NCBI GenBank assembly: GCA_964610345.1
Contig: CAZSVQ010000001.1
Location: 280-62,348 of the forward strand
Length of the DNA: 62,069 bases
Direction of reading: 5' to 3'
From: an uncultured Candidatus Saccharibacteria bacterium
Lineage (GTDB): Bacteria > Patescibacteriota > Saccharimonadia > Saccharimonadales > JAGQNJ01
Shown here: one piece after another, positions 39,139 through 61,946 of the stretch
Numbering within the stretch: position 1 is the first letter of the stretch
How the letters are laid out: each line of letters opens with the position of its first letter
Made by a program: the position numbers and the translations under genes
The notes under the pieces: model-generated
Database searches by the model: none
The model's input: only the letters and a program-made list of their open reading frames with translations
Told to the model about the DNA's origin: nothing

Positions 39139-39144
39139 ACCAAG

Positions 39145-41003: not shown

Positions 41004-41035
41004 TATAGATTAGCTAAGAAACACTGGGGGAGGGA

Positions 41036-41368: not shown

Positions 41369-41369
41369 T

Positions 41370-41864
41370 ATGGCCGTCAATAGTAGTTTAAATGCGGTTG
41401 ATCCAAGGCCAGTTGTCAGGCGATTGATTGGGCAAGTTAGTGGCTTATCTACTAGTGGCGCAAACTATAGCCCTAATAATCAGATGGGCGGTGAAATCAC
41501 ATTTGCCATGGCTACTAGGGCTTCAGGAGGCTACGGCACAGTAACTACGGCTACAATAATAGATACGGCAAATGTTATCGGCGCGGTAGATTTACATTTG
41601 TTTAGCTCTAGCATTACACCTGCTAATGATAAATCTGCAACCAATTTTTCAGACAGTGCTATGACTCAAAATTATATGGGTACAATATCTTTTCCAGCAC
41701 CAACATCGTTTACTAATAATCGCGGAATCAGCCTATCGGCGATAGGGCTAACGTATAATTGTACATCAACAATTTTATATGGATACCTAACGACACTAAC
41801 ACAACACGGTATCTTTAATTCCGCAACTGACATAACTATCAGCTTAACTACATACCAGTACTAA
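41370..41864 (+). CDS. Beta-rich hypothetical protein (164 aa)
   Basis: Starts 1 nt after the upstream stop. No signal peptide and no recognised family. Confidence 0.5.
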   Translation: MAVNSSLNAVDPRPVVRRLIGQVSGLSTSGANYSPNNQMGGEITFAMATRASGGYGTVTTATIIDTANVIGAVDLHLFSSSITPANDKSATNFSDSAMTQNYMGTISFPAPTSFTNNRGISLSAIGLTYNCTSTILYGYLTTLTQHGIFNSATDITISLTTYQY

Positions 41865-41866
41865 TC

Positions 41867-43093: not shown

Positions 43094-43117
43094 AATAGGG
43101 TAAAATAGACGTAAGCA

Positions 43118-44515: not shown

Positions 44516-44573
44516 TAACCGAACATGTTTTAAACATAATAAATAAAAGTTATACTATTAAAGAATTAAATAT

Positions 44574-45827: not shown

Positions 45828-45837
45828 GGTAAGTATT

Positions 45838-47106
45838 ATGAAAAATAATTATGCTAAACAATTTGAAGGAAAACTTTGGTTAGAGCTACGAAATGGAAAT
45901 ACAGGAAAAGTTGAAAATAAAATATCAGTAAAGAACTTTGCAGCTAATCAAACAAATGAATATGGTAAATGGCTGCAAAGGAACTCTTTTAAAACGGGAC
46001 TAAGTGCACTTGGTGTTACGGATACTGATTATTCACCACATCAAGCAGCCAACGCAATGGTATTAACTGATTCAACGCTAGTAGAAGATCCTTCGGGTGA
46101 ATGGTATATGCCTGGAAAAACTATAGGATACGCTATTAAAGCAACATATGCCGGAACGGATATTTGGCGAGGTACAGTAGCTACAACACAATTACAGGCA
46201 ACATCTGCATTAACAAAATGGACCTTCGATTGGCCTACACACGCAGGTAATGGGACAATTGGCTCTGTTGGGTGGGTTGATTCTCAATCGCAAGGATTAT
46301 CAGCAACAGAACCTATTTTTAGATCGACAATGACTATACTATCTGGGCACGGTAGCACAGGTAACTGGAATAATTTTGCGCGAGCCAATAGTTCAACAGC
46401 ATTTGGCAACACAGGCAACACAGTAATTTATGTATTAGATGGTTTAAGTTATGCACAAACTACAACATTCAATGTTAATGCACAATTTACGGCTGTTCGT
46501 GGCATTGCTTGGGACTCTGGCAATAACTTTCTTTGGGTGATCGGTGATAACAGTTCTGTCCGACGAATTGCTGCGTATAATTCATCTGGTGTATTGCAGA
46601 CAGGCCCTTTTGTGGTAACTACAAGGTCGTATATAAGGTTGGCGTATGATGGGTCAGCACTTTGGAGTATCACCCAAGATAGCGGTTCAAATCATACAGC
46701 CTGGAAGTTAAATACCTCAGACGGGTCAGATATGACTAACTTCCCTTTTGTTACAAATACATCTTCAGTTGTTTGCGGTTTAGCTTGGAATGATAATACA
46801 AATACACTTTGGATGCGCTATTCTGGTACAACGGGGTTTCAAGCTTGGGATACAAGTGGTAATAAAAAAGCAGTCGAGATATCTACAAGTGCATTTACAC
46901 CAAGTGCAGGCAATTATGCAAGTAATTTAAATTCTGGTTTAGATTTTGATTTTATTAATAGTTATGAAATTGCCGTTTCTCAAGCAACAAATACTGTCTA
47001 TAAGTGCCGATTAGATGGCATGGGTACGCGTGCTTTATTGCCAAGCCCTGTAACAAAAAATAACACACAAACTTTAAAATTAATCTACCAAATAAACTAT
47101 ACTTAA
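45838..47106 (+). CDS. Fibre/adhesin-like paralog C
   Basis: TKWTFDWPTHAGNGTI, LWVIGDNS, RSYIRLAYDGSALW and DGMGTRALLPSPVTKNNTQTLKLIYQINYT. Confidence 0.6.
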   Translation: MKNNYAKQFEGKLWLELRNGNTGKVENKISVKNFAANQTNEYGKWLQRNSFKTGLSALGVTDTDYSPHQAANAMVLTDSTLVEDPSGEWYMPGKTIGYAIKATYAGTDIWRGTVATTQLQATSALTKWTFDWPTHAGNGTIGSVGWVDSQSQGLSATEPIFRSTMTILSGHGSTGNWNNFARANSSTAFGNTGNTVIYVLDGLSYAQTTTFNVNAQFTAVRGIAWDSGNNFLWVIGDNSSVRRIAAYNSSGVLQTGPFVVTTRSYIRLAYDGSALWSITQDSGSNHTAWKLNTSDGSDMTNFPFVTNTSSVVCGLAWNDNTNTLWMRYSGTTGFQAWDTSGNKKAVEISTSAFTPSAGNYASNLNSGLDFDFINSYEIAVSQATNTVYKCRLDGMGTRALLPSPVTKNNTQTLKLIYQINYT

Positions 47107-47118
47107 TCGTATTGAGGG

Positions 47119-47643
47119 TTAAGATCCTAAAACTTGATTATTAAATAATTTGATTACCTGATCTTTTGCTAGTTTACTTTTTGTAATTGCTACAAAATAT
47201 CTATCATTTAGAATATATGCTGAATTACCACTCAGTAATGCTTCATCTTTAATGTCGGTTATTGTTATTTTGTTAGTTAAATTAGCTGTTTGAGCTTCCC
47301 AGGCTTCATTGACAATTTGTGAATTATTATCTTTAGAATACTTAATAACTATTTGTATATTGTTTTCTGATAACTCGTCTTTGGATTTGAAAGTGCAAGT
47401 ATCGCTACTTAAGCCACCGTTTATACTGGCTTTGGTCGTACTCGGTTTTTCGTAATCAATGTTAAATATTGACTTTAACTCTTCAGGAGTAATTTTGTTA
47501 CAAATATCTTTTTCCTGAGTGTTATTAATAGAGACAACCTCTTGCTTGACAGGGGCTTTTTTATTAGTTGATAATCTCCATACACCAAAAGCTAAGATTG
47601 GTATTAATATAATGGCGCCGAATATTAATATTCTTTTCTTCAT
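47119..47643 (-). CDS. Membrane-anchored or secreted hypothetical protein
   Basis: MKKRILIFGAIILIPILAFGVWRL signal/anchor. 174 aa. Confidence 0.45.
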   Translation of the reverse strand: MKKRILIFGAIILIPILAFGVWRLSTNKKAPVKQEVVSINNTQEKDICNKITPEELKSIFNIDYEKPSTTKASINGGLSSDTCTFKSKDELSENNIQIVIKYSKDNNSQIVNEAWEAQTANLTNKITITDIKDEALLSGNSAYILNDRYFVAITKSKLAKDQVIKLFNNQVLGS

Positions 47644-47751
47644 ATTGTTATTTTATGCAATTAACACAAGCAATGTAAAGTAGCTTGACAAGAATTGGCA
47701 GGGTGGTTACCATGTAAATGGTTAATTAAAAAATAAAAAACCAAAAATAAA

Positions 47752-47982
47752 ATGAACAATTTAGATAACATACAGCAGTTAATGGCTCAAGAAGTTTCGC
47801 GCCGGCAGTTTTTGTTACATACTGGAACTGCATTGTTGGCAATTTTTGGCATTTCGGGTTTAATACGTAATTTAAATTCTATATTTCCACAAAAGGTTGA
47901 TGAATCAGGTGCTTATGGCTGGAATGGATATTCTGGGATAGCAGGCAAAAAAAGCTCTTTGCAAAAGGCAGGTAAATTGTAA
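47752..47982 (+). CDS. 76-aa protein consisting mostly of a twin-arginine (Tat) signal peptide
   Basis: ..AQEVSRRQFLLHTGTALLAIFGISGLI.. matches S-R-R-x-F-L plus an h-region. Its stop overlaps the next start (TAATG). Confidence 0.55.
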   Translation: MNNLDNIQQLMAQEVSRRQFLLHTGTALLAIFGISGLIRNLNSIFPQKVDESGAYGWNGYSGIAGKKSSLQKAGKL

Positions 47983-48680
47983 TGGCACGCTTACCAATTC
48001 CTGGTCAAGATATCGGTACTTGGGGTCAGGTTTTAAATGAATTTTTAAATGTTGGACATAACCCTGATGGTACTCTAAAAATAAGTACTACGCCAGAAAC
48101 TCCAGATGCAAACTCGACTACCAAAGGTAAGCTACGCTTAGCTGGTGATCTTGGAGGTACGGCAGATAGCCCCACAGTTACATCAACCTCATTAACCTCG
48201 GCACTACCGATAAATCAAGGTGGTACAGGTTCGACAACGCAAAACTTTGTAGACATTACAAACAATCAAACCATTGGTGGAACAAAAAGTTTTAGCAGTA
48301 CAGTAAATGCTAGTATAAACGGCACGGCAGACAATGTTACTGGTGTTGTAGCTATCACCAACGGAGGTACCGGCTCTAACACCAAAAATTTTGTTGACCT
48401 TACAACCAATCAAACAATTGCTGGCAGTAAAACCTTTTCTGACGTGATTATTGGTGATATTGCTGGGAATTCTAATAACGTAAATGGGGTTGTGGCTATC
48501 ACCAACGGTGGTACCGGGCAAACTACCCCCGACGCAGCTCTAAATGCGTTACTGCCAAATCAAACAGGCAATAACGGCAGAGTATTGCAAACCGATGGCG
48601 CAACTGCTACCTGGGTTCAACCAGCCACAACAAATCTTGACGATATTTATGCTTTGCAGTGGATGGTAGTCGGCGCCTAA
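47982..48680 (+). CDS. Tail-fibre-like repeat protein with the conserved N-terminal LPIPG module
   Basis: [33 protein letters not shown], then ~44 aa repeats I(T/N)(N/Q)GGTGS.T.NFVD(I/L)T.NQTI.G.K.FS. It ends ..LQTDGATATWVQP.. . No signal peptide. Confidence 0.65.
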   Translation: MARLPIPGQDIGTWGQVLNEFLNVGHNPDGTLKISTTPETPDANSTTKGKLRLAGDLGGTADSPTVTSTSLTSALPINQGGTGSTTQNFVDITNNQTIGGTKSFSSTVNASINGTADNVTGVVAITNGGTGSNTKNFVDLTTNQTIAGSKTFSDVIIGDIAGNSNNVNGVVAITNGGTGQTTPDAALNALLPNQTGNNGRVLQTDGATATWVQPATTNLDDIYALQWMVVGA

Positions 48681-48705
48681 ATCCCAGAATTGTAAACTAA
48701 TAATT

Positions 48706-50580
48706 TTATACCTTAAGTTTTTTGGTTTTGCGCCAAGGGCCGTGAGCTCGCAGGGCATAAATTATAACTGTTACGTCAACAAGCTCTTGGATTATCGCAC
48801 CACTTGTAGCGTTGAATTTACCGGTAGAATAAATCAACATCAAAACTATACTTATAATAATACCAATCATAATACTTTGTTTGGCGATACTAAGAGTATT
48901 TTTGGCGATATCTAAACTTTGTGCAACTTTACTGACATCGTCTAACATGATTACAACATCTGCGGTTTCGCTAGCAGCTGTTGAGCCACGAGCCCCTAGT
49001 GCAATACCAACTTCTGAAGCTGTTAGTACTGGTGCGTCATTCACCCCATCACCAACAAAGGCAACCGGACGGTGTTTTAATTCTTCAATGGCGGTTAGTT
49101 TATCGGCTGGCAAGCAGTCTGCCTTTACATTAGTAATACCAAGTTTTTTAGCAATAGTTTGGGCCGTCGTTTTATTATCACCAGTAACCATCAGAGTGTT
49201 TTTAATGCCAAGTTTTTTAATTCGCGCAAGCATTGATTTGCTTTCTGGGCGGATTGCATCTTCAAAACTAATAGTGCCAATTACGTTTTCGTCAACCACT
49301 ACCAACGAGGTAGTATCTGTTAAAGTGCTGGCTTTTAGTTGGCTAGGCATGTTGATTTTGCTTGAGCGTACAAAATTATATTTACCGACAATGATTTGTT
49401 TATTGCCGGCATAGCCTAGCAAGCCATGACCAGCTACTTCTTTAACATTTTTTGTTTTAGGTAGTTTTAATTTCTTTTTTTCGGCTTCATTTACGACAGC
49501 CTGAGCCAGTATGTGGTTAGAGTTATGCTCGAGTGCTGCAGCATACCCTAGCACATCACATATTTTATTTTTTCCAAATGCCGTAACTTTTTTTACGGTC
49601 GGGCGCCCGACCGTTAATGTGCCGGTTTTATCAAAAGCAACAGTTTTGACATCAGCAAGCTGTTCAATTGCCCCACCGTTTTTTATTATAATGCCGTGCC
49701 TAGCAGCTCGGCTAATTCCAGAAATCAAAGCTATTGGCGCTCCCAAAATTAATGGGCAGGGAGTTGCTACAACGAGTACTTGTAAGAACCGCATAGAGTC
49801 ACCAGACATAATCCAAGCCCCTCCAGCAATGATAAAAGCTATAATAGTAAATGGAATACTATAACGATCAGCTAAACGGACAAATGGTGATTGAGAAGTA
49901 GAGGCTGATTTAACTAATTTTATTATTTGTTCATACTGGCTGTCGACAGAGGTGTGGATGGCTTTTATAGTAATTGTGCCGTCAACAGCGATTGCTCCAC
50001 TAAGTATGGTTTCTCCAATTTCTTTATTTATTGGCAGACTTTCCCCGGTAATGCTAGATTCGTCAAAACTTGAATCGCCTTCTAGTATTATACCGTCAAC
50101 TGGCACCACCTCACCTGGCTTAATCAAAATTTTATCACCAACTTGAACTTTACTAACTACTACATCAATAGTTTTACGGCCTTTTAAAATACGAGCTTGT
50201 TTAGGGGCGTTATTTAATAGTGTACTCAGTTCTGCCTTAGCGCGGTTTTCGGCATAATCTTCAAGTGCTTCACCACCGGTTAGCATCAAGACGATAATTA
50301 TTCCGGCCCAATATTCTCCAAGTACTATAGATGTAATGATTGCTGTAGCTGCAAGTATATCAACACCGTATGTGCCATGCCTAAGGTCTTGAATCATGCC
50401 CCAAACCAGAGGAATGGTGTTTAATATTGCCGTAACAGCAAGCAAAATATGAGCGGTCTTAGTAAAACCAGCAAAAGTTAGACACAGTGCAAATAAAATT
50501 GAAACTACAGTCCAACCAAATTGATAGTACTCTCTAAAAAATCGTCCAAGCTTTTTGAACACATCACCTCCTGTAATCAA
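48706..50580 (-). CDS. P1B-type heavy-metal translocating P-type ATPase with TPCP transmembrane motif, no N-terminal metal-binding domain
   Basis: TGES, DKTGTLT, GDGVNDAP, and TM motif VVATPCPLILG. The N-terminus starts directly with TM helices. Confidence 0.85.
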   Translation of the reverse strand: MITGGDVFKKLGRFFREYYQFGWTVVSILFALCLTFAGFTKTAHILLAVTAILNTIPLVWGMIQDLRHGTYGVDILAATAIITSIVLGEYWAGIIIVLMLTGGEALEDYAENRAKAELSTLLNNAPKQARILKGRKTIDVVVSKVQVGDKILIKPGEVVPVDGIILEGDSSFDESSITGESLPINKEIGETILSGAIAVDGTITIKAIHTSVDSQYEQIIKLVKSASTSQSPFVRLADRYSIPFTIIAFIIAGGAWIMSGDSMRFLQVLVVATPCPLILGAPIALISGISRAARHGIIIKNGGAIEQLADVKTVAFDKTGTLTVGRPTVKKVTAFGKNKICDVLGYAAALEHNSNHILAQAVVNEAEKKKLKLPKTKNVKEVAGHGLLGYAGNKQIIVGKYNFVRSSKINMPSQLKASTLTDTTSLVVVDENVIGTISFEDAIRPESKSMLARIKKLGIKNTLMVTGDNKTTAQTIAKKLGITNVKADCLPADKLTAIEELKHRPVAFVGDGVNDAPVLTASEVGIALGARGSTAASETADVVIMLDDVSKVAQSLDIAKNTLSIAKQSIMIGIIISIVLMLIYSTGKFNATSGAIIQELVDVTVIIYALRAHGPWRKTKKLKV

Positions 50581-50655: not shown

Positions 50656-51033
50656 ATGGTTATTTTGTTGGCTCTAAAATGGTGGTATAGCGCTGGCTGG
50701 CAATGGGTATGGACACAATCTGTTAGTGAACGTATCAACTGGGTAAATCAAGCCTTCTCAATTTCTGCTTTGGTGCGTACATGGTTTTCACCATTTAAGC
50801 AAACGTATAGTAAAGTCAACAAGGGCTCAATTGATTTTAGGGTTCAGGCGGCTGTAGATAATTTTGTATCTAGATTTATCGGGTCAATTCTCAGAACAAT
50901 AATTATTATTGCCGGGCTACTTTGTATGATATTGGCCGTGACTACTGGAGTGTTGGCAATAATTCTTTGGCCAGTTATTCCTTTAATGCCTCTAATTGCA
51001 ATTATCCTTAGCGTAAGTGGGCTAGGTGCATGA
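50656..51033 (+). CDS. Small Trp-rich membrane protein translationally coupled to the Clp-like ATPase
   Basis: 125 aa with C-terminal TM helices. Its stop overlaps the next start (ATGA at 51030). Confidence 0.5.
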   Translation: MVILLALKWWYSAGWQWVWTQSVSERINWVNQAFSISALVRTWFSPFKQTYSKVNKGSIDFRVQAAVDNFVSRFIGSILRTIIIIAGLLCMILAVTTGVLAIILWPVIPLMPLIAIILSVSGLGA

Positions 51034-53453
51034 AAGATTCATTGCACTGTAATATTAAAAGTGCCAGAGCTGTGAAAGCGCGTTTTGCAACACATTTTGA
51101 CAATACTCTTGTTAGGCAATCACTAACAGTAGTTAATTTTATATGTATCGCAGGACTAGTGTGGCTAATATTTGTAACTAAAAGTACTTTAGGTTGGTTG
51201 TTGCTAGCACCGTTTTCGATAAATATTTTCTTTTTGGCTTGGTATCACGGTGAGCTTTCAGATCTAACGCCAACATCTAAGTTAGATGAAGTTAGAGATT
51301 TAAGTGATGTTGTTAGCAGGCGATTGCTGGCACAGTTGTCTGACTCAATGACGCCAAAAGATCTTGCTAAATGTATTACTAAACAAGAGGGTGGTTATTT
51401 TTTTGGAGCCAGATTTGGGATTGGCCAAGATTTTTTATTGCAATATTCAGCTGATGATGAAGGCTCTAGTGCCTTGGTGTGGAGTCGAGCGATAGAGTTA
51501 GCGCTCAAGACAGGCAGTCAAGAAATTGACTCCGGAGATTTGGCAGGAGCGTTAATATTAACTATCCCTGAGGCAGAGCCAACATTGGCACGTTTAGCAA
51601 TTGATGCTAGTGATATTAAAAATGGCGTAGAATGGCTTGCTCATATTCGTCGGATGATTGAACGAGCAGAGGAGAAAAGTCATTTTGGTGGAATTGGCAG
51701 AGATCTTAGTTTTGGTTGGGCTCCAACTCTAAACCATGTGGGATTCAACATTACGGATAGCATTCAGAACGGTGCATTTTTAAGTCGTGCTGTTGTTAGT
51801 CGTGAGCAAAATATTGATCAGATTATGCGGTTACTAGCTCAGCATGGAAGACGCAATGCAGTGTTAGTCGGCGAACCAGGAGTCGGCAAAACAACTTTAA
51901 TATATAGTTTGGCTCAACGGTTATTGTTAGGCAACTCAGCTATTCCTCGTGAGTTGATGTTTCAGCAAATAATAACACTCGACGCTGCTAACTTAATAAC
52001 TAACGCCAAAGCTCGTGGGCAACTAGAGTCTCTATTAATTAGAGTTTTTAACGAGGCGATTCATGCAAAAAATGTAATTATTTTTCTTGATGATGCGCAA
52101 CTATTTTTAAAAGATGGTACTGGCTCAGTGGATTTATCTAATTTACTTTTACCAATATTACAGGGTGGAGCATTGCGTATAATTTTGTCGTTGACTGATC
52201 AAGAATGGTTACGTTTGAGTCAAGAAAATCCAGGGTTGGCTCAGCTTGCAAATAGGGTGGCCGTCAAGCCGTTAGAACACGACGAAACTATTCAAGTAGT
52301 TGAAGATGAAGTTGTGCTACTTGAAGCAAAAAACAAACAAGTCTATATGTATCAATCAATAAACGAGGCTTATAACTTAGCCGAGCGATTCATTCATGAA
52401 CAAGCATTTCCCGGCAAAGCTATAAAATTATTAGAGGCAGCCGCAAACTTCCCAGAAAGTGAACATTTTGTGACCGCAAAAAGTGTTAAGTTAGCGGTTG
52501 AAAAATCTTTTGATGTTAAGGTGCAATCGGCTGACACACAAGCTGAAAAAGATACCCTACTAAATTTGGAGCAAAAAATTCACGAACGTATGATTAACCA
52601 AACTCGAGCTGTAACTTTAGTTAGTGACGCATTAAGGCGTGCTCGGAGCGGGGTGCGTAACCAAAATAAACCAATTGGTACATTCTTGTTCTTGGGCCCA
52701 ACTGGAGTTGGTAAAACTGAGTTATCAAAAGCTTTAGCTTTTGTGTATTTTGGTGGCGAAGAACGTATGGTTAGGATTGATTTAAACGAGTATTCTCACG
52801 CAGAGGATACTAGTCGCTTGTTGGCAGTGGGCGCAATCGACCCTTATAGTTTATGTGCTCAAATTGCCAAACATCCATTTAGTGTGGTGCTACTGGATGA
52901 AATCGAAAAGGCCCACCCCAATGTTTTAAATATCCTACTTCAAATGCTTGACGAGGGTGTTCTGCGTGACGCTAATAATAAACCAATCAGTTTTAGGGAT
53001 GCAATTATTATTTGTACCAGTAATGCCGGAGCTGAGCAGATTAGGGCACACATTAACCAAGGACAAAATCTAGAAGATTTTGAAGAAGCGTTAGTGGATG
53101 AACTAATTAATGCTAATATTTTTAGACCAGAATTTTTAAATCGGTTTGATGAAATCGTATTATTTAGGCCGCTTAAAAAAGAAGAGCTCATTCAGCTAAT
53201 TGACTTACTGCTACACTCACTTAACAAAACACTGGCCGATAGAAAGGTCAGTGTTGTGTTGACTGATCGCGCCAAAGAACTATTAGCAACCCGTGGCTAT
53301 GATCCACGCCTGGGCGCACGCCCCTTGCGCCGAGTTATGCAAAGAGCGGTAGAAAATTTGGTGGCTCAAAAACTGTTGTCTAGCCAGGTAGGCCCCGGAC
53401 AGCAAATCCAGTTAGACGCACCAGAACTTCACAAAGTACTAGAATCTAGGTAG
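51030..53453 (+). CDS. Membrane-anchored two-ring Clp/Hsp100-family AAA+ ATPase (no M-domain, no ClpP-docking loop recognised)
   Basis: Two N-terminal TM helices and a Clp_N-like region. NBD1 has Walker A GEPGVGKTT and Walker B IIFLDDAQ. NBD2 has Walker A GPTGVGKTE and Walker B VVLLDEIEKAHPNV. The C-terminus is D2-small (GARPLRRVMQRAVEN). Confidence 0.8.
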   Translation: MKDSLHCNIKSARAVKARFATHFDNTLVRQSLTVVNFICIAGLVWLIFVTKSTLGWLLLAPFSINIFFLAWYHGELSDLTPTSKLDEVRDLSDVVSRRLLAQLSDSMTPKDLAKCITKQEGGYFFGARFGIGQDFLLQYSADDEGSSALVWSRAIELALKTGSQEIDSGDLAGALILTIPEAEPTLARLAIDASDIKNGVEWLAHIRRMIERAEEKSHFGGIGRDLSFGWAPTLNHVGFNITDSIQNGAFLSRAVVSREQNIDQIMRLLAQHGRRNAVLVGEPGVGKTTLIYSLAQRLLLGNSAIPRELMFQQIITLDAANLITNAKARGQLESLLIRVFNEAIHAKNVIIFLDDAQLFLKDGTGSVDLSNLLLPILQGGALRIILSLTDQEWLRLSQENPGLAQLANRVAVKPLEHDETIQVVEDEVVLLEAKNKQVYMYQSINEAYNLAERFIHEQAFPGKAIKLLEAAANFPESEHFVTAKSVKLAVEKSFDVKVQSADTQAEKDTLLNLEQKIHERMINQTRAVTLVSDALRRARSGVRNQNKPIGTFLFLGPTGVGKTELSKALAFVYFGGEERMVRIDLNEYSHAEDTSRLLAVGAIDPYSLCAQIAKHPFSVVLLDEIEKAHPNVLNILLQMLDEGVLRDANNKPISFRDAIIICTSNAGAEQIRAHINQGQNLEDFEEALVDELINANIFRPEFLNRFDEIVLFRPLKKEELIQLIDLLLHSLNKTLADRKVSVVLTDRAKELLATRGYDPRLGARPLRRVMQRAVENLVAQKLLSSQVGPGQQIQLDAPELHKVLESR
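53238..53305 (+). repeat. Left copy of a perfect 68-nt direct repeat (inside the 3' end of the Clp-like gene)
   Basis: GATAGAAAGGTCAGTGTTGTGTTGACTGATCGCGCCAAAGAACTATTAGCAACCCGTGGCTATGATCC is identical at 58809-58876. Confidence 0.95.
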
Positions 53454-53671
53454 CTCAGCTCCAGGTTATGAGTTTGCTATTTGGGCTACAAATTGAGCCC
53501 AATACTTAGCCGGTGTCTAAAACATATATCAAGTTGATAACGATATTTGATGTTTGAAATGCGTCGATATACTTTAATCAGTAAAAGATGCCGTAGACAT
53601 TGACGGTGAAATGTAATATTATAATGCTAACAAACAAGATTATTGAACAATAATCAATAAAGTTAAACAAT

Positions 53672-55507
53672 ATGTCTAAGCATAACCGACAATCACAAAG
53701 AATGAGATATTTCAGCACCTTAGCTGGGCCATATCAAAAATTACAAAGAAAACACCCATATAAAGTAAGCTACAGTAAGCTTAATAGTAAAGACAATATA
53801 TTGTATCGTTTTTGGGTAATAGCAATGGCATATATGTCTTTAGGGATAGTGCTAGCGTTTACGGCTGTTTTGTTTCGACCCGAGCATTGGATAATTAGGC
53901 TTCAGCCTGAATCATCGCTACATACATGGAATTTGTTAATGTTGGTGTGTTTGGTTATGTTGCAGATTTTTGTGATTATTGGTACTATTTCGGCCACTAG
54001 ATCAACGCTAAAAGCTCGTAATCCAATTCCGGTCCGGCCACCTAGAGGGTTGCGTGTAGCATTTGTGACTACTCGTGCTCCCGGGGAGCCGATAGATTTA
54101 GTGCGCACCACTTTAGAGGCCGCCAAAAGGGTACGTTACAAACAGGGCACGGTAGAGGTGTGGCTACTTGATGAAACTAAGGATCCTGCGCTAAAAACTC
54201 TGTGCAGACAAACTGGCGTAAAATACTTCAGCCGAAAAAATGTAGCTAAATGGAATACTTTAAAGCCAAAATCAAAACTACATCGTTTATATGCTATCGG
54301 AAGTAAAAATGGTAAAAACTACATCAAGCCAGATCAATTTTATGCGACACGAACAAAGCACGGTAATTTTAATGCGTGGTTAGCTTATTTAGAGAGCAAG
54401 CATATTAGATATGATATCTTGGCGGGGGTAGATACTGACCATGTTCCGGAACCGAACTTCTTAGAGCGCATTTTGGGCTATTTTCGTGATGATGATGTTG
54501 CGTTTGTGGTTGGTCCACAAGTTTATGGTAATTATACTGTTGGTGCTAGCGGATTGGTTACACGGTGGGCTGAATCGCAGGCATCGTTTTTTCAAAGTAC
54601 AATTCAGCGTGCCGGTAATGCTAGTAAATCGCCGATGTTTGTGGGCACAAATTACGCTGTAAGAATACCGGTGTTGCAACAAATAAGAGGTTTCCAGCCG
54701 TGCATAACTGAGGATATGGCAACAGGTTTAGCTATTCACGCTAGTCAAAATCCAAGTACTGGCAATCACTGGGAGTCGGTCTACACGCCCGATGTACTGG
54801 CAGTGGGTGAGGGTCCGGAAGCCTGGGCGCCATTCTTCACGCAACAATGGCGCTGGGCAGGTGGGTCTTTTGATACTTGGCGATGCATAGTCTGGAAACT
54901 AGGGTATCGTATTCCGTTCAGAGCAATGTTGCACTATCTATTGATGCTCGTTTACTATCCAATTTCTGCTTTAACATGGATTTTAGCAGTTGCAAGTAGT
55001 TTAATGTATTTGACGACAGGGGCTACAGCTATTCTTGCTCCTTGGGGAATGTTTATGGCGTTATATCTTATGTCGATGGTGATGCAGTTGAGCTTATATT
55101 TTTGGAACCGTCGCTTTAATGTGTCGCCACACGAGCCAGAAGGTTCTTACGGAGTAGCGGGCATGGTTATGTCTTCTTTGGTTGCCCCGGTATACTCTTC
55201 GGCTCTGATGGGAATACTAGTGGGTAAAAAACCAAATTTTGTAGTTACTGCTAAAGGTGGTGGTGCTAGTTTGGATCGGTGGACGGCATTTAGAGTGCAC
55301 TTGCAATGGGCAATAATATTAGCAGTGGCGTTAGGTTATGGTATTTATGCCAAAAATGATCACCCGGCAATGCTTATTTGGGTCGGGTGCCTACTGGCTG
55401 TTTGCTTGTTGCCATGCGTATTGGCTTTGAATTTGTCTATGAAGAGTTGGTCGCAAAACCTAATTATTAAATTGAGGCCTGAATCGAAAGGAGTTCACCA
55501 TGCATAA
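53672..55507 (+). CDS. cslA: Cellulose-synthase-like family 2 glycosyltransferase (CslA-like)
   Basis: Polytopic, with GT2 motifs DTDH (DxD), ITEDMATG (TED) and QQWRWAGG (QxxRW). It overlaps the downstream gene by 8 nt. Confidence 0.8.
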   Translation: MSKHNRQSQRMRYFSTLAGPYQKLQRKHPYKVSYSKLNSKDNILYRFWVIAMAYMSLGIVLAFTAVLFRPEHWIIRLQPESSLHTWNLLMLVCLVMLQIFVIIGTISATRSTLKARNPIPVRPPRGLRVAFVTTRAPGEPIDLVRTTLEAAKRVRYKQGTVEVWLLDETKDPALKTLCRQTGVKYFSRKNVAKWNTLKPKSKLHRLYAIGSKNGKNYIKPDQFYATRTKHGNFNAWLAYLESKHIRYDILAGVDTDHVPEPNFLERILGYFRDDDVAFVVGPQVYGNYTVGASGLVTRWAESQASFFQSTIQRAGNASKSPMFVGTNYAVRIPVLQQIRGFQPCITEDMATGLAIHASQNPSTGNHWESVYTPDVLAVGEGPEAWAPFFTQQWRWAGGSFDTWRCIVWKLGYRIPFRAMLHYLLMLVYYPISALTWILAVASSLMYLTTGATAILAPWGMFMALYLMSMVMQLSLYFWNRRFNVSPHEPEGSYGVAGMVMSSLVAPVYSSALMGILVGKKPNFVVTAKGGGASLDRWTAFRVHLQWAIILAVALGYGIYAKNDHPAMLIWVGCLLAVCLLPCVLALNLSMKSWSQNLIIKLRPESKGVHHA

Positions 55508-57482
55508 TAATCAAAAGTCAATTGCCCGTCGTGGTCGGCCTTTGATCCTAGTTATAAGCACATTATTAGCTATCAGTGTAGCATCGTCGCCAGTATCGGT
55601 GCCGGCCTTTTCTGAATGGTGGTACGAAAATAAAGTAAATTCAATTGATTACAAAAAACTATATGGACACTGGCAAGTATTAGATTTACCCGAAGAGTTT
55701 AAGCTAAATACTATTCATGGCGCCGCCTTGCCAACAGGCAAAATCTTATTAGTGGCTGGCTCGGGCAATAATAGACAAGACTTTAATGCTTTTCACAATG
55801 AAGGCAAAATACAGGTTTTAAAAACTGTTGTGCTTGACCCAGAGACCATGGATATTAAGACGGTAGAGACTCCAAGTGATTTATTTTGTAGCGGTCATGC
55901 CTTGCTCCAGGGCGGCAACTTACTAATTGCCGGTGGTACCAGTGGATATGAGTTGTTAGAGAACGAAGTAAAAAAACCAGCCGGTGCAATGACTATACAT
56001 AACGAAGACCCGGATAGTCAACCGCGAACTTTCCCCAAGGGCACTAGGTTTACCAGCCCTAAAGGTAAGGTTTATGAATCAACCGAAGAATTTATTTTAC
56101 AGCCTGCTCACAAAATGGATCACGGTCAAGGTAATGTTGAAATCCATCATAGTAGTAGCAAGGTGTTCGTTGAAGCTGTATCAGAAGATCCTAGCTATAT
56201 AACAGAAGAACATCTTCAGTATAGTATCGAGGGTCTTACTGGCACTGATGAACATAATATCTATGGTCAGGGTGGACCAATGACCCTAAATAAGCAAGAT
56301 TTTCGGGGCGATGAACGTACCTACGAATTTGACCCAGTTTCTGAGCAGTATGTTCGCGTGGGTGACTTAAAAGAGAGTCGTTGGTATGCGTCATTGCCGG
56401 TTTTGACGAACGGTGAGGTTCTGGCCGTGTCTGGATTAGATAATACAGGCGTTATCACTGAAACTACAGAGAAATACCACCCAGATACCAAGCAGTGGGA
56501 GTGGGGACCAAACCAGGCAATGCCAACTTACCCAGCCTTATTCCGCACATTAAACCCAGATGAGTTGTTTTATTCTGGTTCTAGTGCTGGTTATGGACCG
56601 GCAGACAAAGGGCGTGAGCCAGGCTTTTGGAATATTAAAACTGATAAGTTTACTACCGTATCTGGATTGCGGGACACTGACATACTAGAAACAAGTGCAT
56701 CGGTTATGTTGCCACCCAAAAAAGGTAGCAACGATGGTAGCCAGAGTTGGCGTGTTATGGTTGCCGGAGGTGGTGGAGTCGGTGAGTCGCCACTGGTCAC
56801 CAAGCGAACAGACATCATTGACCTCACTGAATCGAACCCAACCTTCACGCCTGGTCCTGACTTACCGAGTCCATTACGTTATGTAAATATGGTAGTAACG
56901 CCGTGGGATGAGGTGTTTGCAGCTGGTGGTACCGCTGACTATCGCTCCAAGGGTGAAAGCTATTCTCATAAAACGGTTATGATTAATCCGGTAGACAATA
57001 AAGTTACACCAATGGCAGACGAGCGTGTTGGTCGCGGTTATCACTCAGGTGCGGTCTTGCTTAAAGATGGGCGTATTTTGGCATTCGGTAACGACCCACT
57101 ATTTAGTGATAAGGATAATACTCAAATTGGCAAGTTTGAACAACGTCTTGAAATATTTACGCCAGCTCACTTTTTTCATGGCGACCGTCCGATGCTGATT
57201 GGTAAAGAAAGTTTACAGGCCAAAAGAGGTCAAGAACTTAGTTTTAGTAGCCCTCAAGCTAGCAGTATTAAAACTGCCCGCTTGATTCCACCTAGTAGCA
57301 CCACGCATGTAACAAATATAGAGCAACGATCAGTGGGAGCCATAGTTAAACATAGCGGTGGGAATGTAAACATTCAAATACCCGATGACGAAAATCTACT
57401 CCCTAATGGATGGTATATGCTATTCGTAACCAATGAAAACGGAATTCCTTCTGTAGCTAAAATGATACAAATTGTTCGCTAA
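55500..57482 (+). CDS. glxA: Membrane-anchored radical copper oxidase (glyoxal/galactose oxidase-like, GlxA-like) with C-terminal DUF1929-type domain
   Basis: LFCSGHALLQGGNLLIAGG (cross-link Cys), ESRWYASL (Tyr) and GRGYHSGAVLLKDGRILAFG (His ligand). The C-terminus is LPNGWYMLFVTNENGIPSVAKMIQI. Confidence 0.8.
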   Translation: MHNNQKSIARRGRPLILVISTLLAISVASSPVSVPAFSEWWYENKVNSIDYKKLYGHWQVLDLPEEFKLNTIHGAALPTGKILLVAGSGNNRQDFNAFHNEGKIQVLKTVVLDPETMDIKTVETPSDLFCSGHALLQGGNLLIAGGTSGYELLENEVKKPAGAMTIHNEDPDSQPRTFPKGTRFTSPKGKVYESTEEFILQPAHKMDHGQGNVEIHHSSSKVFVEAVSEDPSYITEEHLQYSIEGLTGTDEHNIYGQGGPMTLNKQDFRGDERTYEFDPVSEQYVRVGDLKESRWYASLPVLTNGEVLAVSGLDNTGVITETTEKYHPDTKQWEWGPNQAMPTYPALFRTLNPDELFYSGSSAGYGPADKGREPGFWNIKTDKFTTVSGLRDTDILETSASVMLPPKKGSNDGSQSWRVMVAGGGGVGESPLVTKRTDIIDLTESNPTFTPGPDLPSPLRYVNMVVTPWDEVFAAGGTADYRSKGESYSHKTVMINPVDNKVTPMADERVGRGYHSGAVLLKDGRILAFGNDPLFSDKDNTQIGKFEQRLEIFTPAHFFHGDRPMLIGKESLQAKRGQELSFSSPQASSIKTARLIPPSSTTHVTNIEQRSVGAIVKHSGGNVNIQIPDDENLLPNGWYMLFVTNENGIPSVAKMIQIVR

Positions 57483-57492
57483 AGAAACCGAT

Positions 57493-58638
57493 TTACTCAG
57501 CGTTAGAGGCAAGCTCTAATGCTTTTTCGGTAATAAAAACACCGGCGTCAGGATTCCCGCGACAAGATCCATCGCTTTCGCCCGGGACTTTAATCCAGAC
57601 GTAGGCATGGAGGTTTTTATCATTCACGTTGGTAGTTGGGGCTTTTCCAAGACCACGCCCTTCGGGGTTGCACCAACGAGCTTCACCGGTAACAGTGTTT
57701 GGCGCAGAGCCACGACCATTACGACTAGTATCTATCAAAATTCCTTTTTCTTTGCCGATTAGCGCCACTAGGTCTTGTGCCCACTTCGTGATATCGGGTG
57801 TGGCAATAAAGTTCGAAACATTTACGGTTATGCCACTGGCATTATCTATGCCAGCGCGTTTCAAGGGTTCTACTAGCTTGCTGGCATCAGGGAACCACTC
57901 GGAGTGCCCGCTATCTAGGTAAACCCCAATAACCTTAGGATTTTGCTTCAATGTTGTAATAGCCGAAGCTAGAGTAGCATAACGCTCATTGGTCTGTTTG
58001 TTCGTCAGGCAGTTACTTTCAATTGTGTGAGCCAACGCATCTGGTTCGAGTGTGACCACTGTTTCTGATTTGATCTTCGAGGATATATTTGCAACCCAAT
58101 TTAAGTATGATTCGCTTGATTTAAATCCGCCACTCGAGTAGCCAGCGCAAGCATCGCGATGCGGGATGGCGTAGATTTGGTAAAGGGCTACTTTATTCTG
58201 CTGTAGTGCTGATTGTGATATTTGCTCAACCAGGTATAAATCACTGTTGCCGTTAGGGTCTTCAGTTGTTGGTCCATTGAGCCATATTGCAGTTGGTTGA
58301 TTTGATATTTTTTCGAGTAGCTTTGCCTTGGATGTATCATTTTGAGCTATGTCTGTAATGGCTTTATTGACGGTACGTGTGGTATGAATATAAAATTCTT
58401 TGCCAGCTAGTGGCGACGATGACTTTGGGGTATTGTTGTTTGTCGTGCTGTTAATTGTGGGTGTTGACAGCTGTTCGTAGCGATTATTGTTCGGCGACGA
58501 CCAGAAATACCAACTCAAGGCACTTAGAATTACAAAGACGAGCCCAATGGCTAAAATCAATTTTAGCGAGAGTTTATTTTTGTGCTTGTTCCGTAAGTTA
58601 CCGGGACTTACACGTTTTGCTTGTTCCTTGCGTGGCAT
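57493..58638 (-). CDS. Membrane-anchored glycoside hydrolase family 6 (endoglucanase, CslZ-like)
   Basis: GH6 signatures VALYQIYAIPHRDACAG and VTLEPDAL, plus WIKVPGESDG. N-terminal TM anchor. Confidence 0.75.
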   Translation of the reverse strand: MPRKEQAKRVSPGNLRNKHKNKLSLKLILAIGLVFVILSALSWYFWSSPNNNRYEQLSTPTINSTTNNNTPKSSSPLAGKEFYIHTTRTVNKAITDIAQNDTSKAKLLEKISNQPTAIWLNGPTTEDPNGNSDLYLVEQISQSALQQNKVALYQIYAIPHRDACAGYSSGGFKSSESYLNWVANISSKIKSETVVTLEPDALAHTIESNCLTNKQTNERYATLASAITTLKQNPKVIGVYLDSGHSEWFPDASKLVEPLKRAGIDNASGITVNVSNFIATPDITKWAQDLVALIGKEKGILIDTSRNGRGSAPNTVTGEARWCNPEGRGLGKAPTTNVNDKNLHAYVWIKVPGESDGSCRGNPDAGVFITEKALELASNAE

Positions 58639-58774
58639 GAACTATAGTCTAGCAAGAAATACAGGAATATTCACGTCTTTGTATATACCCATGTCACGGG
58701 GAACAACCCAAAGCTATAAATATTATAAGGTCAACCTTTTTAGATCGCGATATATGAACGGCTAAATTAGCGGA

Positions 58775-59023
58775 TTTTTCACTGATATCTCTTCATAAAA
58801 AGCTAGCAGATAGAAAGGTCAGTGTTGTGTTGACTGATCGCGCCAAAGAACTATTAGCAACCCGTGGCTATGATCCTCGTTTAAGCGTTTGCCCGTTGCA
58901 CCGAGTCATGCTGTGTTAAAGAAAAGGTTGTTGCTCAAAAAACTACTTGTTGGTCAAATAAACCCTGGCCAACAAATCTAGTTCGACACCTCAGAGCCCA
59001 ATCAAGCCTTAGATATCTGTTAA
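58775..59023 (+). pseudogene. Decayed duplicate of the last ~80 codons of the Clp-like gene (contains the right 68-nt repeat at 58809-58876)
   Basis: Reads LHKKLADRKVSVVLTDRAKELLATRGYDPRLSVCPLHRVMLC*. Recognisable but frame-broken homology continues to ..GPGQQIQLD.. (..NPGQQI*FD..). Confidence 0.8.
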
Positions 59024-59055
59024 CGTAACGCACGTTTAACTAATGGGAGAAATGG

Positions 59056-60081
59056 CTAGATACTATTTTCTAGTATGGTTATGACATTATTCCATAACGT
59101 CAAAGCTTCCTTGCTAGCGTGTTCAGATTTTGGTGAAATAAGTTGGGTGAATATTACGTAAGCTGTTTCATCATTTTCAACAAACCCTATGAATGACCCG
59201 ATATCGTTATTTGTATAAATTAGGTTGTTATTAATCATAGATGATGTTCCTGTTTTTCCGCCAATAGATTTAAATTTTGAATCTTGCTTTAAGTTGGCTT
59301 TGTATTGATCCATGTTATATGTAAGTAATTTTTTAAACTCGTTAACAGTTGACTCCTTAATTCTTTTATCTGGATTAGTCAAGGCAATATCGTAAGCATT
59401 AGTTAGTTGTAGAGGTGTTGCATTAATACCAACCCCGAATGAAGACAAACTGAACCTGTATTCTGGATTATTTTTTAAATTTATTGGTGGCAAGTAGCCA
59501 CTATCTTCATTAGTGATATTATATCCAGTTTTTTTATTGAGTCCATAAACTTCTTGCAAGTTCAGGTTCCATATTCTTCTTCTTTCCGATGGTTTACTAT
59601 CTAATGATTTATATATTTCAACGATGCCGGTATTAATGGAGTTAACGGAAATATCTGCAATAGAATATGTTCCCGAGCTAAATACTAAATGATTCTGTAT
59701 TGTTTTTCCACCAATTGATTCATAATTTTTTACGTTGTATATAGACTCAATGGTTTTTTGATTTTTTTCTATTGCTGTTTGAATTAATAGTGGTTTTATG
59801 ATGGAGCCAGGCTCCCATGATGCAAGGGCAAGGTTTAATTTATTGCCACATTTATCAATATGATAGCCAGGTATTGAACTGACTACACTTACGAGTTTGT
59901 CCGAATTAGCATTTTTAATGACTATTGAGCCACCGACACTTTCAGTTCTTTTTATCTCTTTCGAGAGTAATATTTCTGCAGAAGATTGAATATTCGTATC
60001 CATGTTTTCATTAATTTTTGGATAGCACTTTATTTGTTGTGGCGAAGATAAAAATAACAATACTGATAAAATAACAGCCAA
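59056..60081 (-). CDS. Penicillin-binding-protein transpeptidase-domain protein
   Basis: SxxK (GSIIKP), SxN (SVNS) and KTG (GGKTGTS). 341 aa with a signal/anchor. Confidence 0.65.
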   Translation of the reverse strand: MAVILSVLLFLSSPQQIKCYPKINENMDTNIQSSAEILLSKEIKRTESVGGSIVIKNANSDKLVSVVSSIPGYHIDKCGNKLNLALASWEPGSIIKPLLIQTAIEKNQKTIESIYNVKNYESIGGKTIQNHLVFSSGTYSIADISVNSINTGIVEIYKSLDSKPSERRRIWNLNLQEVYGLNKKTGYNITNEDSGYLPPINLKNNPEYRFSLSSFGVGINATPLQLTNAYDIALTNPDKRIKESTVNEFKKLLTYNMDQYKANLKQDSKFKSIGGKTGTSSMINNNLIYTNNDIGSFIGFVENDETAYVIFTQLISPKSEHASKEALTLWNNVITILENSI

Positions 60082-60100
60082 GATAACTACAACTTTTAAT

Positions 60101-61375
60101 TTAATACGACAACCTTGTTTTTAATTTATAATTTACAGGTAGCTTATATATTAGCGAAGCTAAAGAAATAAAAAATAGTGAAGTCAATTCAATGCTGGGA
60201 ACATTAAACACGGCGTTTAAAAATAAGATTAGCACAATAATTGATAGCACGCCAGTTTCGGGGTCGCGTGACAATAGCCCAAGAATTATTCCGAATAGCG
60301 CGATAGCGAACAATAAAAATGAAAAAATTAATCCAAAATAATACGCCATATCAAGAAATAAATTATGTGTTGAAGAAAAGACGATTGATTGGTTCAAGGT
60401 ATCGGCTAAATCTGCTGGAACTTGATTTATGTCATTGATTGATACAGGTAATGAACCAGGCCCGTTACCGAATACGATATTATTTTTTGACACATCCAGT
60501 AAAGACAAATAATACATGCTTGATCTGTACGAAGAGCCTTGATTGATTCTATTGGCCTGGAATCTGTAAAAGTAATTTTTCTGGGTAATTGCTAGTAGTG
60601 GCAACAACACAACAATCGTCAAAACACATAAAAGTATTTTCTTCGATTTTATATTAAATTTTAATGTAATTAAACCTAAAGATATAAGTAAACTTAAATA
60701 GCCAATACGTGATTGTGTTAGAAGTAGTATTATTATAGCTAAGATCAGGGTAATATAATGTAGGAGTAGTAATTTATTTTCTGTATTTTTATTTATTAAT
60801 TTATAAAAAATTATAACTATTACTAAAACTGCATACATGGCTAAAGTTGTAGACTGAACAAGCAGCCCACTAATTCTAATGCCGTGCCAAATATTGTCAA
60901 AATCAATAAGAATAGAAAAGCTTAAAATTATTGTAAATATAGTTATTGCTGAACTAGAAGAGATGTGTCTGGTAAACGTTTTTCTATTAGTAACAGCTAA
61001 AACAACAAAGCATAACCAACTAAGGATACCTAAATACACAGGGGGTGTACCTAGTAAAATTTCACTAATTGGCTGTGAACTTTTTATCAAGCTACCCAAA
61101 ACAACTAATAATACAATAAGAAATATTGTTTTAAACTGGGCACGGACTTTATTGAACCGTTTAAAATCTTTTACAATCTCTACATGATTATAAAACAGAA
61201 TACCTGTAGAGATCCCGAATAATGCAAGGGCGCGAAGTGTACTAATGGCTGTGTAATTGTTCGGAATATATATTAGCGGAATGCATAGTAATGCTAATAA
61301 CGATAGATGATTTTTGTTAATTATGTTATATATTTTGTTGACATTTGTAATTTTGCCAATTAAAGCTAACATCAC
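60101..61375 (-). CDS. O-antigen ligase / Wzy-like polytopic membrane protein
   Basis: About 10-12 TM helices, with the STHNLFLDMAYYFGLI motif (HN.(F/Y)L..(E/D)..G) typical of Wzy_C. Very AT-rich. Confidence 0.55.
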   Translation of the reverse strand: MMLALIGKITNVNKIYNIINKNHLSLLALLCIPLIYIPNNYTAISTLRALALFGISTGILFYNHVEIVKDFKRFNKVRAQFKTIFLIVLLVVLGSLIKSSQPISEILLGTPPVYLGILSWLCFVVLAVTNRKTFTRHISSSSAITIFTIILSFSILIDFDNIWHGIRISGLLVQSTTLAMYAVLVIVIIFYKLINKNTENKLLLLHYITLILAIIILLLTQSRIGYLSLLISLGLITLKFNIKSKKILLCVLTIVVLLPLLAITQKNYFYRFQANRINQGSSYRSSMYYLSLLDVSKNNIVFGNGPGSLPVSINDINQVPADLADTLNQSIVFSSTHNLFLDMAYYFGLIFSFLLFAIALFGIILGLLSRDPETGVLSIIVLILFLNAVFNVPSIELTSLFFISLASLIYKLPVNYKLKTRLSY

Positions 61376-61415
61376 TTAATACTAACATTTATAGCAAAAA
61401 TATGTATTGAAATAT

Positions 61416-61946
61416 TTATTTACCGCCACTAGGGTTGGGGACGGGGCACATATTAAATACAGAACAATCGTTAAAGAATGCGGTCCATGTATTAGGGCCA
61501 ACTACGCCATCGGGAGCTGTATTTTTACCTGCGGCACCTTTTGCTTTTTGAAATGCAATTACTTTTTGTTTTGTTGATTCCCCGTATATTCCATCTACAG
61601 CTACATATCCACCAACTGTCGGTGAATTTTTACTGTTTCCAGCTTTGGTTTGAGCGGTTGTCCAGTTATTTAGGCCTACTTGTATAGCATAAACACAAGG
61701 CCCTCGACTGCCTACACCCTGTGTTGGAGGTATGTCACTGGGTGGTTGCTGTATGCATAGTCTAGCCTGATCATTATTAAGATAACTTGCATAATATGCA
61801 GTGTATGCACTACTTCTATTTAACATATAAACACCCAGAGCACCGAAAGTTAGAATAATTGCCATAATTATAAAAAACTGTCGTTTTGAAAAAGAGCCAT
61901 TTTTTACTTTAACTTGTTTATTTGTTGTTTTCTTTTTTGATTTCAT
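61416..61946 (-). CDS. Membrane-anchored peptidoglycan-binding (PG_binding_1) domain protein
   Basis: VYAIQVGLNNW...VDGIYGESTKQKVIAFQKAKG...PDGVVGPNTWTAFF. Confidence 0.6.
   Translation of the reverse strand: MKSKKKTTNKQVKVKNGSFSKRQFFIIMAIILTFGALGVYMLNRSSAYTAYYASYLNNDQARLCIQQPPSDIPPTQGVGSRGPCVYAIQVGLNNWTTAQTKAGNSKNSPTVGGYVAVDGIYGESTKQKVIAFQKAKGAAGKNTAPDGVVGPNTWTAFFNDCSVFNMCPVPNPSGGK

Follow-up and report, generated by a model that had tools for sequence, protein, structure and literature searches.

Introduction

Genomic islands, prophages and integrative and conjugative elements (ICEs) that lie at gene 3′ ends between the attachment (att) sites attL and attR have their extra genes flanked by a duplicated gene 3′ end, the upstream copy of which completes the gene, and relatives of the carrier lack the insert at that site. 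These traits are also seen at a locus of an uncultured Candidatus Saccharibacteria bacterium, which we analyzed in a window of 62,069 nucleotides (nt), the window being throughout this whole stretch of DNA (assembly GCA_964610345.1, contig CAZSVQ010000001.1, positions 280–62,348, forward strand). There, 68 nt from the 3′ end of a gene for a Clp/Hsp100-like AAA+ ATPase (clp) recur exactly on the far side of a cassette of three genes, cslA-like, glxA-like and GH6. A first-pass annotation had read the repeat as the scar of an island that integrated into clp. Comparison with conspecific lineages and related loci leads us to consider that the 68-nt repeat is probably a recent gene-conversion patch on an old, decayed relic of clp, and not the att core of a mobile island.

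Gene conversion between repeated genes has precedents in the duplicated tuf genes of enterobacteria, in pilE/pilS of Neisseria and in the MgPa repeats of Mycoplasma genitalium. As we read it, the locus would resemble such systems of concerted evolution, or of conversion between a gene and silent copies, in its short non-reciprocal patches between diverged repeats, its islands of identity and the variation of its patches between lineages. Homology-facilitated illegitimate recombination and Campbell-type insertion of transformed DNA are known from Acinetobacter baylyi and Streptococcus pneumoniae; they would explain, without a recombinase, a truncated 3′ fragment beside an incoming operon. The three genes themselves are like the cslA-glxA-cslZ apical-glycan locus of Streptomyces (bioRxiv 10.1101/2023.11.20.567928; PMC4736821; PMC9040799), with a family 2 glycosyltransferase (GT2), GlxA and GH6 in the same order and orientation. 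The CslA and GlxA proteins of Streptomyces form a cellulose synthase complex (bioRxiv 10.1101/2023.11.20.567928).

Results

A 68-nt repeat within a relic of the clp 3′ end

The functional clp gene (51030–53453, + strand) encodes 807 amino acids (aa), with Pfam matches to AAA (residues 278–380), AAA_lid_9 (418–508), AAA_2 (547–709) and ClpB_D2-small (715–794). As judged from these two AAA+ modules and the C-terminal D2-small domain, the predicted protein is a Clp/Hsp100 AAA+ protein. No Clp N-domain was detectable in it by Pfam, and its N-terminal part carries a hydrophobic (membrane) segment.

The left copy of the repeat (53238–53305, + strand) lies inside clp at codons 737–759 (..DRKVSVVLTDRAKELLATRGYDP..), and the right copy (58809–58876, + strand) matches it at 68 of 68 positions, the identity ending precisely at those bases. 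The right copy stands within a pseudogene fragment of ~320 nt (58700–59023, + strand), delimited by tblastn and nucleotide alignments, that corresponds to residues ~698/722–807 and is the counterpart of the Clp D2-small domain. In tblastn, Clp residues 722–770 aligned with 58764–58910 at 78% identity, and residues 760–805 with 58886–59014 in another frame (37% identity, E=2e-6). Downstream of the right copy, homology runs at 62% identity (90/146) to the equivalent of the natural stop codon (TAA, 59021–59023); upstream, similarity is clear at the protein level from 58764 and persists at ~50% nucleotide identity back to ~58700. This fragment, the relic, contains a 2-nt deletion after 58911, one extra A in a run of A residues and a premature TAA at 58917–58919 (..PRLSVCPLHRVMLC*), and the sensor-2 motif, GARPLRR in the window and in the relatives L001–L006, reads SVCPLHR in the relic of the window. 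To this extent, the first-pass annotation described the locus well: its exact 68-nt repeat, its non-functional second copy with lower-identity homology running on through a stop codon and frame breaks, and its weaker similarity upstream were all recovered.

When the match and mismatch columns of the 317-column alignment of gene and relic (62% identity) were shuffled 200,000 times, the longest run of matches was 38, and none came near 68. The identity tract is far longer than chance would give at the overall divergence of the two copies.

The core of the relic is younger than its flanks

The three conspecific lineages compared were 100%, 99.4–99.9% and 96% identical to the window. The sister lineage is represented by L090, a k=31 Logan contig with 96.2% identity across 16.5 kb aligned; L093 is a Joint Genome Institute (JGI) contig that is 99.4% identical to the window and extends beyond its right end; and L201, a MEGAHIT contig with 99.9% identity, covers the segment from the GH6 start through the relic to the penicillin-binding-protein-like (PBP), Wzy-like (Wzy) and peptidoglycan-binding (PGb) genes. 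The closest outgroup is L001, with a Clp identity of 86% at the aa level and ~74% at the nt level; a protein search gave no Clp relative above 86% identity, and the exact look-up of the window Clp was empty. Gene and relic copies from the window, L093, L090 and L085 were aligned, with L001 added, and site patterns were then counted for the gene and relic of the window (winL, winR) and of L090 (L090L, L090R).

The two relics agreed with each other against both genes at 55/114 sites upstream of the 68-nt core and at 29/100 sites distal to it, but at 0/68 sites within it. With no such site among the 68 of the core against 29–48% in the flanks, the core is therefore much younger than the flanks. 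The 2-nt deletion and the decayed flanks are common to all relics aligned, and this shared deletion, together with the fixed flank differences, means that the relic had diverged heavily before the split of the 96% lineage. Outside the patch, the relics of the window and of L090 differ by ~13%, a neutral divergence.

The relic is real, old and fixed, and its mosaic differs between lineages. In L090, the core of the relic matches its own clp at 62 of 68 positions, with five changes private to the relic, and the clp-like stretch is 35 nt longer. Over these 35 nt (58877–58911, + strand), the relic of the window appears to retain an old, unconverted segment with 11 mismatches, against 3 in L090R; nine of the differences are private to winR, and L090R is clp-like, its 3 differences being counted from its own gene. 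One site of the core is concerted, being C in both window copies, T in both L090 copies and G in L001. These site patterns are not explicable by a single event; two or more non-reciprocal transfers that copied clp onto the relic and stopped at different 3′ ends are needed. The core encodes an intact, lineage-typical peptide, only 1 aa off that of L001, which fits a transfer from gene to relic and the left copy as the probable donor; both the mechanism, gene conversion, and this direction are what we infer from the alignments.

As a separate observation, the last 150 nt of the functional clp considered (53280–53429) are its most divergent stretch relative to L090 (identity 0.94, compared with 0.95–1.00 elsewhere). 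At two sites within this stretch where the window and L090 differ, the L090 gene has the base of both relics, and so does L001 at one of the two.

The base at 58834 in conspecific strains

All eight other conspecific assemblies that reach position 58834 (L079, L080, L093, L174–L177, and L201) have A there, giving a 67/68 match; in L093, the counterpart of this base in the functional clp, position 53263, is C. Among the assemblies compared, only the window has so far shown the perfect 68-mer. L174, a contig from sample ERR8482638, differs from the window across 5,589 nt at 58834 only, and two further contigs of that sample, L181 and L192, are 100% identical to it over 8,307 and 3,196 nt, so that over ~17 kb the ERR8482638 contigs equal the window at all other compared bases. 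In the table of single-nucleotide polymorphisms, the window and L174 both carry the most derived haplotype, and in the outgroup L090 the base at 58834 is C. The window is nested among A-bearing strains, and its C would therefore be a reversion on a terminal twig that restored identity to clp. Logan contigs carrying clp (L181, L184, and L185) match the window through the position of 53263 and end one k-mer later, as expected if their relic differs there; contigs that reach the relic from the cassette side break exactly one k-mer past the 58834 mismatch.

Two origins of this C are conceivable, a very recent conversion and a mistake in the assembly consensus. If it is an error, the perfect 68-mer is absent from the organism, the true base is A, the exact segments measure 25 and 42 nt, and the C arose in consensus calling or repeat resolution. 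We regard this as a genuine possibility, though not the one to which we incline. The eight assemblies with A are independent and include L201, which spans the relic, and L093, and the sole base at which the window departs from the otherwise identical contigs L181, L174 and L192 falls within a near-repeat, the likeliest place for mis-threading or mis-polishing; however, at k≥55 all k-mers across the site are copy-specific, so standard short-read assemblers should keep the A, 150-nt reads over the site almost always reach unique flanks, and the C is found again in the sister lineage. Even as an error, it would leave the relic and its older conversion history real. Whichever the origin of the C, the perfect 68-mer does not belong to the stable features of the species.

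A model of conversion onto an old scar

The course of events that we favor would begin before the lineages of the species diverged, when a rearrangement or insertion would have put the cslA-glxA-GH6 operon directly downstream of clp and left a non-functional clp 3′ fragment of ~320 nt on the far side of the operon. This fragment would have decayed through frameshifts, stop codons and AT-biased substitutions, losing its sensor-2 motif, and the 3′ end of the functional clp, lying in direct orientation at a distance of 5.6 kb, would repeatedly have overwritten a short stretch of it by non-reciprocal homologous recombination, that is, short-tract gene conversion. One such patch would be the 68 nt seen here, and a separate event in the sister lineage would reach 35 nt further. 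In the window strain, the last mismatch, the A at 58834, may have been erased by a very recent conversion or by an error of the assembly consensus. The perfect repeat is most likely a young sequence on an old scar, and the three genes most likely constitute no mobile element that can currently be defined.

Several points weigh against this model. The left boundary of the patch (after 58808) is the same in both lineages, which requires an older common event that was later re-used, where a single recombination junction would be simpler. RecA-type conversion normally requires flanking homology, and the present flanks of the relic are only 50–62% identical to clp. Just one site is concerted, the counts lend little weight to a separate conversion in the lineage of the window (at most one change where ~4 are expected, P ~0.07), and the strain-level reversion depends on one base in one assembly, which could be a consensus error. 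Conversion also leaves the origin of the relic unexplained, and some insertion at the clp 3′ end would still be required.

Two further exact islands occur in the window, one of 41 nt (43535–43575/44976–45016) and one of 26 nt (45771–45796/47050–47075), within tandem paralogue pairs that are only 53–54% identical overall (43118–47106). The tandem paralogues are three in number (465, 417, and 422 aa), have no Pfam match and share 47–54% DNA identity. The islands seem to be further short gene-conversion patches, and conversion would then seemingly be a habit of this genome.

Arrangement of the locus in the species and in its relatives

One L090 contig carries clp, the cassette, the relic and PBP-Wzy-PGb unbroken, and L091 and L092 are concordant with it. 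In L093, the order is clp, cslA, glxA, GH6, relic, PBP, Wzy, PGb, an insert resembling an insertion sequence (IS), tRNA-Gly, tRNA-Arg and tRNA-His; beyond the tRNAs follow HD-domain, polysaccharide deacetylase, sortase and GT2 genes, the last three in the order of L001. The arrangement clp-cassette-relic-PBP-Wzy-PGb is genuine, and in this species it is both old and fixed. A duplication of the second copy during assembly, which the first-pass annotation had allowed for, was ruled out: the complete structure is contained in L090 and in L093, and the relic also in L201.

Orthologues of clp were found in 17 Saccharibacteria (TM7) loci with the same upstream neighbor, and the upstream order of P-type ATPase, 125-aa membrane protein and clp is kept in relatives. 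The start of clp overlaps the end of the membrane-protein gene (50656–51033) by 4 nt, a pair kept throughout the Saccharibacteria loci L001–L017. On the downstream side, seven other genera (L001–L006 and L009) have tRNA-Gly(tcc)/tRNA-Arg(tct) within ~1.1 kb of clp and tRNA-His further on, and no cslA, glxA, GH6, PBP-like or Wzy-like gene lies downstream of clp in any of the 17 relatives' loci. Set against these other genera, the L093 order therefore marks the ~10 kb from the clp stop codon to tRNA-Gly as extra DNA. The relic sits in the middle of this block, between two modules, and the repeats fail to bracket the extra ~10 kb.

No tRNA-Gly 3′-end repeat that might act as the att site of a larger block was found in L093. 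Fragments like the clp relic were found in none of the 17 related loci outside the species, and the clp 3′ end as a recurrent integration target was accordingly rejected (0/17). A promoter and terminator scan of 53300–59200 gave counts not above those of shuffled sequence.

Origin of the relic

The relic likely originated in an ancient insertion or recombination, possibly in an exchange with a diverged clp allele by recombination as the operon was acquired. Mismatches between the relic and clp fall on third, first and second codon positions in 27/48, 19/48 and 9/47 cases downstream of the core and in 22/33, 18/33 and 10/34 cases upstream, where the alignment is uncertain. Were the relic a local duplicate that decayed neutrally and uniformly, a weaker bias than this order of third over first over second positions would be expected. 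Small as the numbers are, the pattern suggests a clp allele that had diverged under selection to about the level of L001 before ~15–25% decay. Such an old recombination between alleles fits, and would keep alive, part of the earlier island idea. The founding mechanism could have been homology-facilitated illegitimate recombination, a Campbell-type insertion or replacement of the resident clp. No donor with clp beside the cassette was found among 80 cassette loci from metagenomes or in L081–L083.

Alternatively, the relic might be a copy of the resident clp 3′ end that was made in situ when DNA was inserted, a long target duplication that decayed neutrally and was converted later, with no second allele and no transfer. 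We think this less likely than not, although part of the evidence leans toward it. By its sequence (AQKLL..PGQQ), the relic belongs with the clade of the window and L001, and it has preserved ancestral residues (GQ.NPGQQ) that are also found in L001 but are altered in the gene of the window, its substitutions are AT-biased (C>T 13, G>A 11) as in neutral decay, and a sister strain has an insert with a ~160-nt direct duplication, so long flanking duplications do occur at this locus. The codon positions speak otherwise: 19–29% of second positions are changed compared with 56–67% of third positions, where local decay beside a constrained gene predicts ~30%, albeit with small numbers and an uncertain upstream alignment.

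The island model and its att sites

A 5.5-kb cslA-glxA-GH6 element could also have entered the clp 3′ end by site-specific integration or through a Campbell-type single crossover, with the 68 nt as the attL/attR core, flanks that differ by provenance (element or host) and an element that is now immobilized. This we consider improbable. The clp 3′ relic does lie exactly at the far side of the cassette, the cassette is absent after clp in the seven other genera, and the patch has a left boundary common to both lineages; the bias of mismatches toward third, then first, then second positions suggests a diverged functional allele over simple local decay. The core is not static, however, with matches of 68/68, 67/68 and 62/68, an extension of 35 nt in L090 and one concerted site. 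The annotation's insertion scar survives as the trace of an old event, but the lineage-variable and younger 68-mer is no preserved att core.

The island model held further that the element had supplied a replacement 3′ end to clp and that the displaced original end was decaying at attR. Sliding identity of clp to L001 is 0.68–0.82 with no break at the 3′ end (0.72), so that the intact end is no more diverged than the rest of the gene, and nothing marks it out as foreign or as the gift of an element. The supposed displaced end was not recently functional either; it had lost its function well before the two cores came to match, as indicated by the frameshift common to all lineages and the destroyed sensor-2 motif.

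As for the cargo, the cslA-glxA-GH6 genes do stand at a lineage-specific position, but the extra DNA runs past the repeats to tRNA-Gly, and the repeats miss PBP-Wzy-PGb and the IS. The absence of a recombinase between the repeats was confirmed, Pfam giving GT2, GlxA and GH6 only, and counts against an integrated element; no recombinase was found in 28.8–50.6 kb of the window, and the nearest DDE transposases belong to strain-variable IS copies beyond 62015. The predicted empty site, with clp directly before the PBP gene, was found in no relative; seven genera have neither cassette nor relic after clp. The cassette never stands beside clp in the 80 other loci, and the 17 relatives have no relic. 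Nor was the repeat found elsewhere: a 32-mer from the core had 0 matches in viral contigs, a degenerate 35-nt core pattern had 0 matches in JGI metagenome contigs, and the region 53200–59060 had no plasmid or phage BLAST match.

The composition of the cassette shows a mild shift in one measure, which would speak for an imported element, and none in another. The GC content at third codon positions (GC3) of its genes, 0.37–0.43, comprises the highest values in the window and exceeds the window mean of 0.315 (standard deviation (sd) 0.045) by 1.2–2.5 sd, the GH6 gene being the highest (0.43) of 56 open reading frames (ORFs). The tetranucleotide distance of the cassette, 15.8, is unremarkable, being within the range of 9.5–17.3 for other 5-kb windows.

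Hardly credible is a reversible switch in which the repeats, direct and flanking an operon, are the maintained substrate of RecA or a recombinase for excision of a 5.57-kb circle, with recurrent conversion keeping them near-identical and Clp being truncated or restored as the operon goes off or on: the identity has been restored repeatedly and excision would fuse clp to the broken end of the relic (..VMLC*), but no contig holds an empty site or a circle junction, the L090 copies lack any exact match of at least 31 nt in the same arrangement, there is no recombinase, and the truncated Clp would be without sensor 2.

The cslA-glxA-GH6 cassette

The cassette comprises the cslA-like GT2 gene (53672–55507, + strand; Pfam Glyco_trans_2_3/Glyco_tranf_2_3), the glxA-like copper radical oxidase gene (55500–57482, + strand; Pfam GlxA beta-barrel and GO-like E-set) and the GH6 glycoside hydrolase gene, which is cslZ-like (57493–58638, − strand; Pfam Glyco_hydro_6, E=1e-57). 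The CslA-like protein is 60–70% identical to those of Saccharibacteria-type contigs and 41–52% identical to those of high-GC actinobacterial-type contigs, with the same gene order. The GlxA-like protein aligns over its full length with Streptomyces lividans GlxA, PDB 4UNM (residues 38–658, E=1e-161), and has more than 100 homologues at 53–78% identity, whose named sources are labeled Saccharimonadales or Patescibacteria; its residues C130, Y514, H515 and H603, candidates for the Cys-Tyr cross-link and the copper ligands, are invariant in 31 homologues.

The same operon order was found (loci L081–L083 and L094–L137) in contigs of 40–53% GC and, at 35–52% identity, in contigs of 66–75% GC. In Saccharimonadales-type contigs, the operon is widespread. 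The closest cassette is that of L081, at 53% GC, and the mild GC3 shift would fit import from a higher-GC Saccharibacterium. Judged by its distribution, cslA-glxA-GH6 is a common chromosomal operon of the class and not typical island cargo. By gene content it is the full-length counterpart of the Streptomyces cslA-glxA-cslZ locus, its function in an episymbiont being predicted only. A literature search gave nothing relevant linking Saccharibacteria with GlxA, CslA or copper radical oxidases.

Neighboring modules and other features of the window

Beyond the relic, 59056–61946 (− strand) holds the PBP-like gene, which is transpeptidase-only, the Wzy_C gene, which is O-antigen-ligase-like, and the PGb gene, all assigned by Pfam (GC 0.31–0.38, GC3 0.23–0.27). 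This module is likewise absent between clp and tRNA-Gly in relatives, and its composition is more deviant than that of the cassette. The PBP-like protein (341 aa) is a near-orphan, with one relative at 43% identity and others at ≤29%. The low-GC trio recurs in one distant relative (L086–L089) in a different context, with an aminotransferase gene, not clp, at the position beside it.

An IS begins at the contig end (62015–62069), and L196, L193 and L201, assemblies of the same strain type, continue from this tail. The L196 continuation encodes a 312-aa DDE transposase with helix-turn-helix (HTH), rve and rve_3 domains, and L090 and L093 are without that insert at that point. Just past the right end of the window, at 6818–8074 of L093, lies an insert of 936 nt in which an HTH ORF (69 aa) and an rve ORF (222 aa) were seen; it is flanked by a ~160-nt direct duplication at 98–100% identity and is absent from the L090 lineage. 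Target duplications of a normal IS are far shorter.

Finally, the window has ~19 kb more than L001 at 29436–48732, with the tRNA-Pro region on one side and the P-type ATPase gene on the other. This segment contains genes for a sortase, a collagen-like protein, two glycine-rich-domain proteins, GT4, FMN reductase, DivIC, TatC, a histidine kinase and a lectin-like protein, and a tRNA-Met. No recombinase was found in it (29.4–48.7 kb), its genes being cell-surface and housekeeping genes only.

Discussion

The locus carries a caution of method: a perfect direct repeat that duplicates a gene 3′ end mimics attL/attR, and here comparison across a population and with a sister lineage points to a young conversion patch on an old scar. 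Island calling from perfect repeats alone would mis-date and mis-delimit the clp-cassette case. With three separate identity islands in one 62-kb window, short-tract homologous recombination would be documented in a Saccharibacteria genome of ~1 Mb, which bears on the retention or loss of duplicated DNA in reduced genomes. If true, the excision switch would be a phase-variation-like device of an ultra-small episymbiont that removes a surface-glycan operon and truncates Clp.

Saccharibacteria are episymbionts of Actinobacteria. A Streptomyces-type glycan locus across the Saccharimonadales, which live on Actinobacteria, may matter more than the repeat and is the more promising lead. Compared with the Streptomyces cslA-glxA-cslZ locus, the carrier here is a Saccharibacterium of ~40% GC, and identity to actinobacterial-type loci is ~40–52%.

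In contrast to islands, prophages and ICEs at gene 3′ ends, this locus has no integrase, its repeats fail to delimit the extra DNA, and its core is younger than the flanks and lineage-variable; the cargo is a conserved chromosomal operon of the phylum, and nothing of the kind recurs at clp in 17 relatives. Homology-facilitated illegitimate recombination and Campbell-type insertion differ from what we see in that no clp-cassette donor was found among 80 cassette loci, and the original join is here no longer readable. In known conversion systems, the partner is a full paralogue or a cassette array, whereas here an expressed gene would be copied onto a dead fragment, a 3′ end of ~320 nt. With this apparent direction, onto the dead fragment, a phenotypic role like that in antigenic variation is therefore not visible. 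Relic gene fragments and concerted evolution are known processes, of which the locus offers a fresh case.

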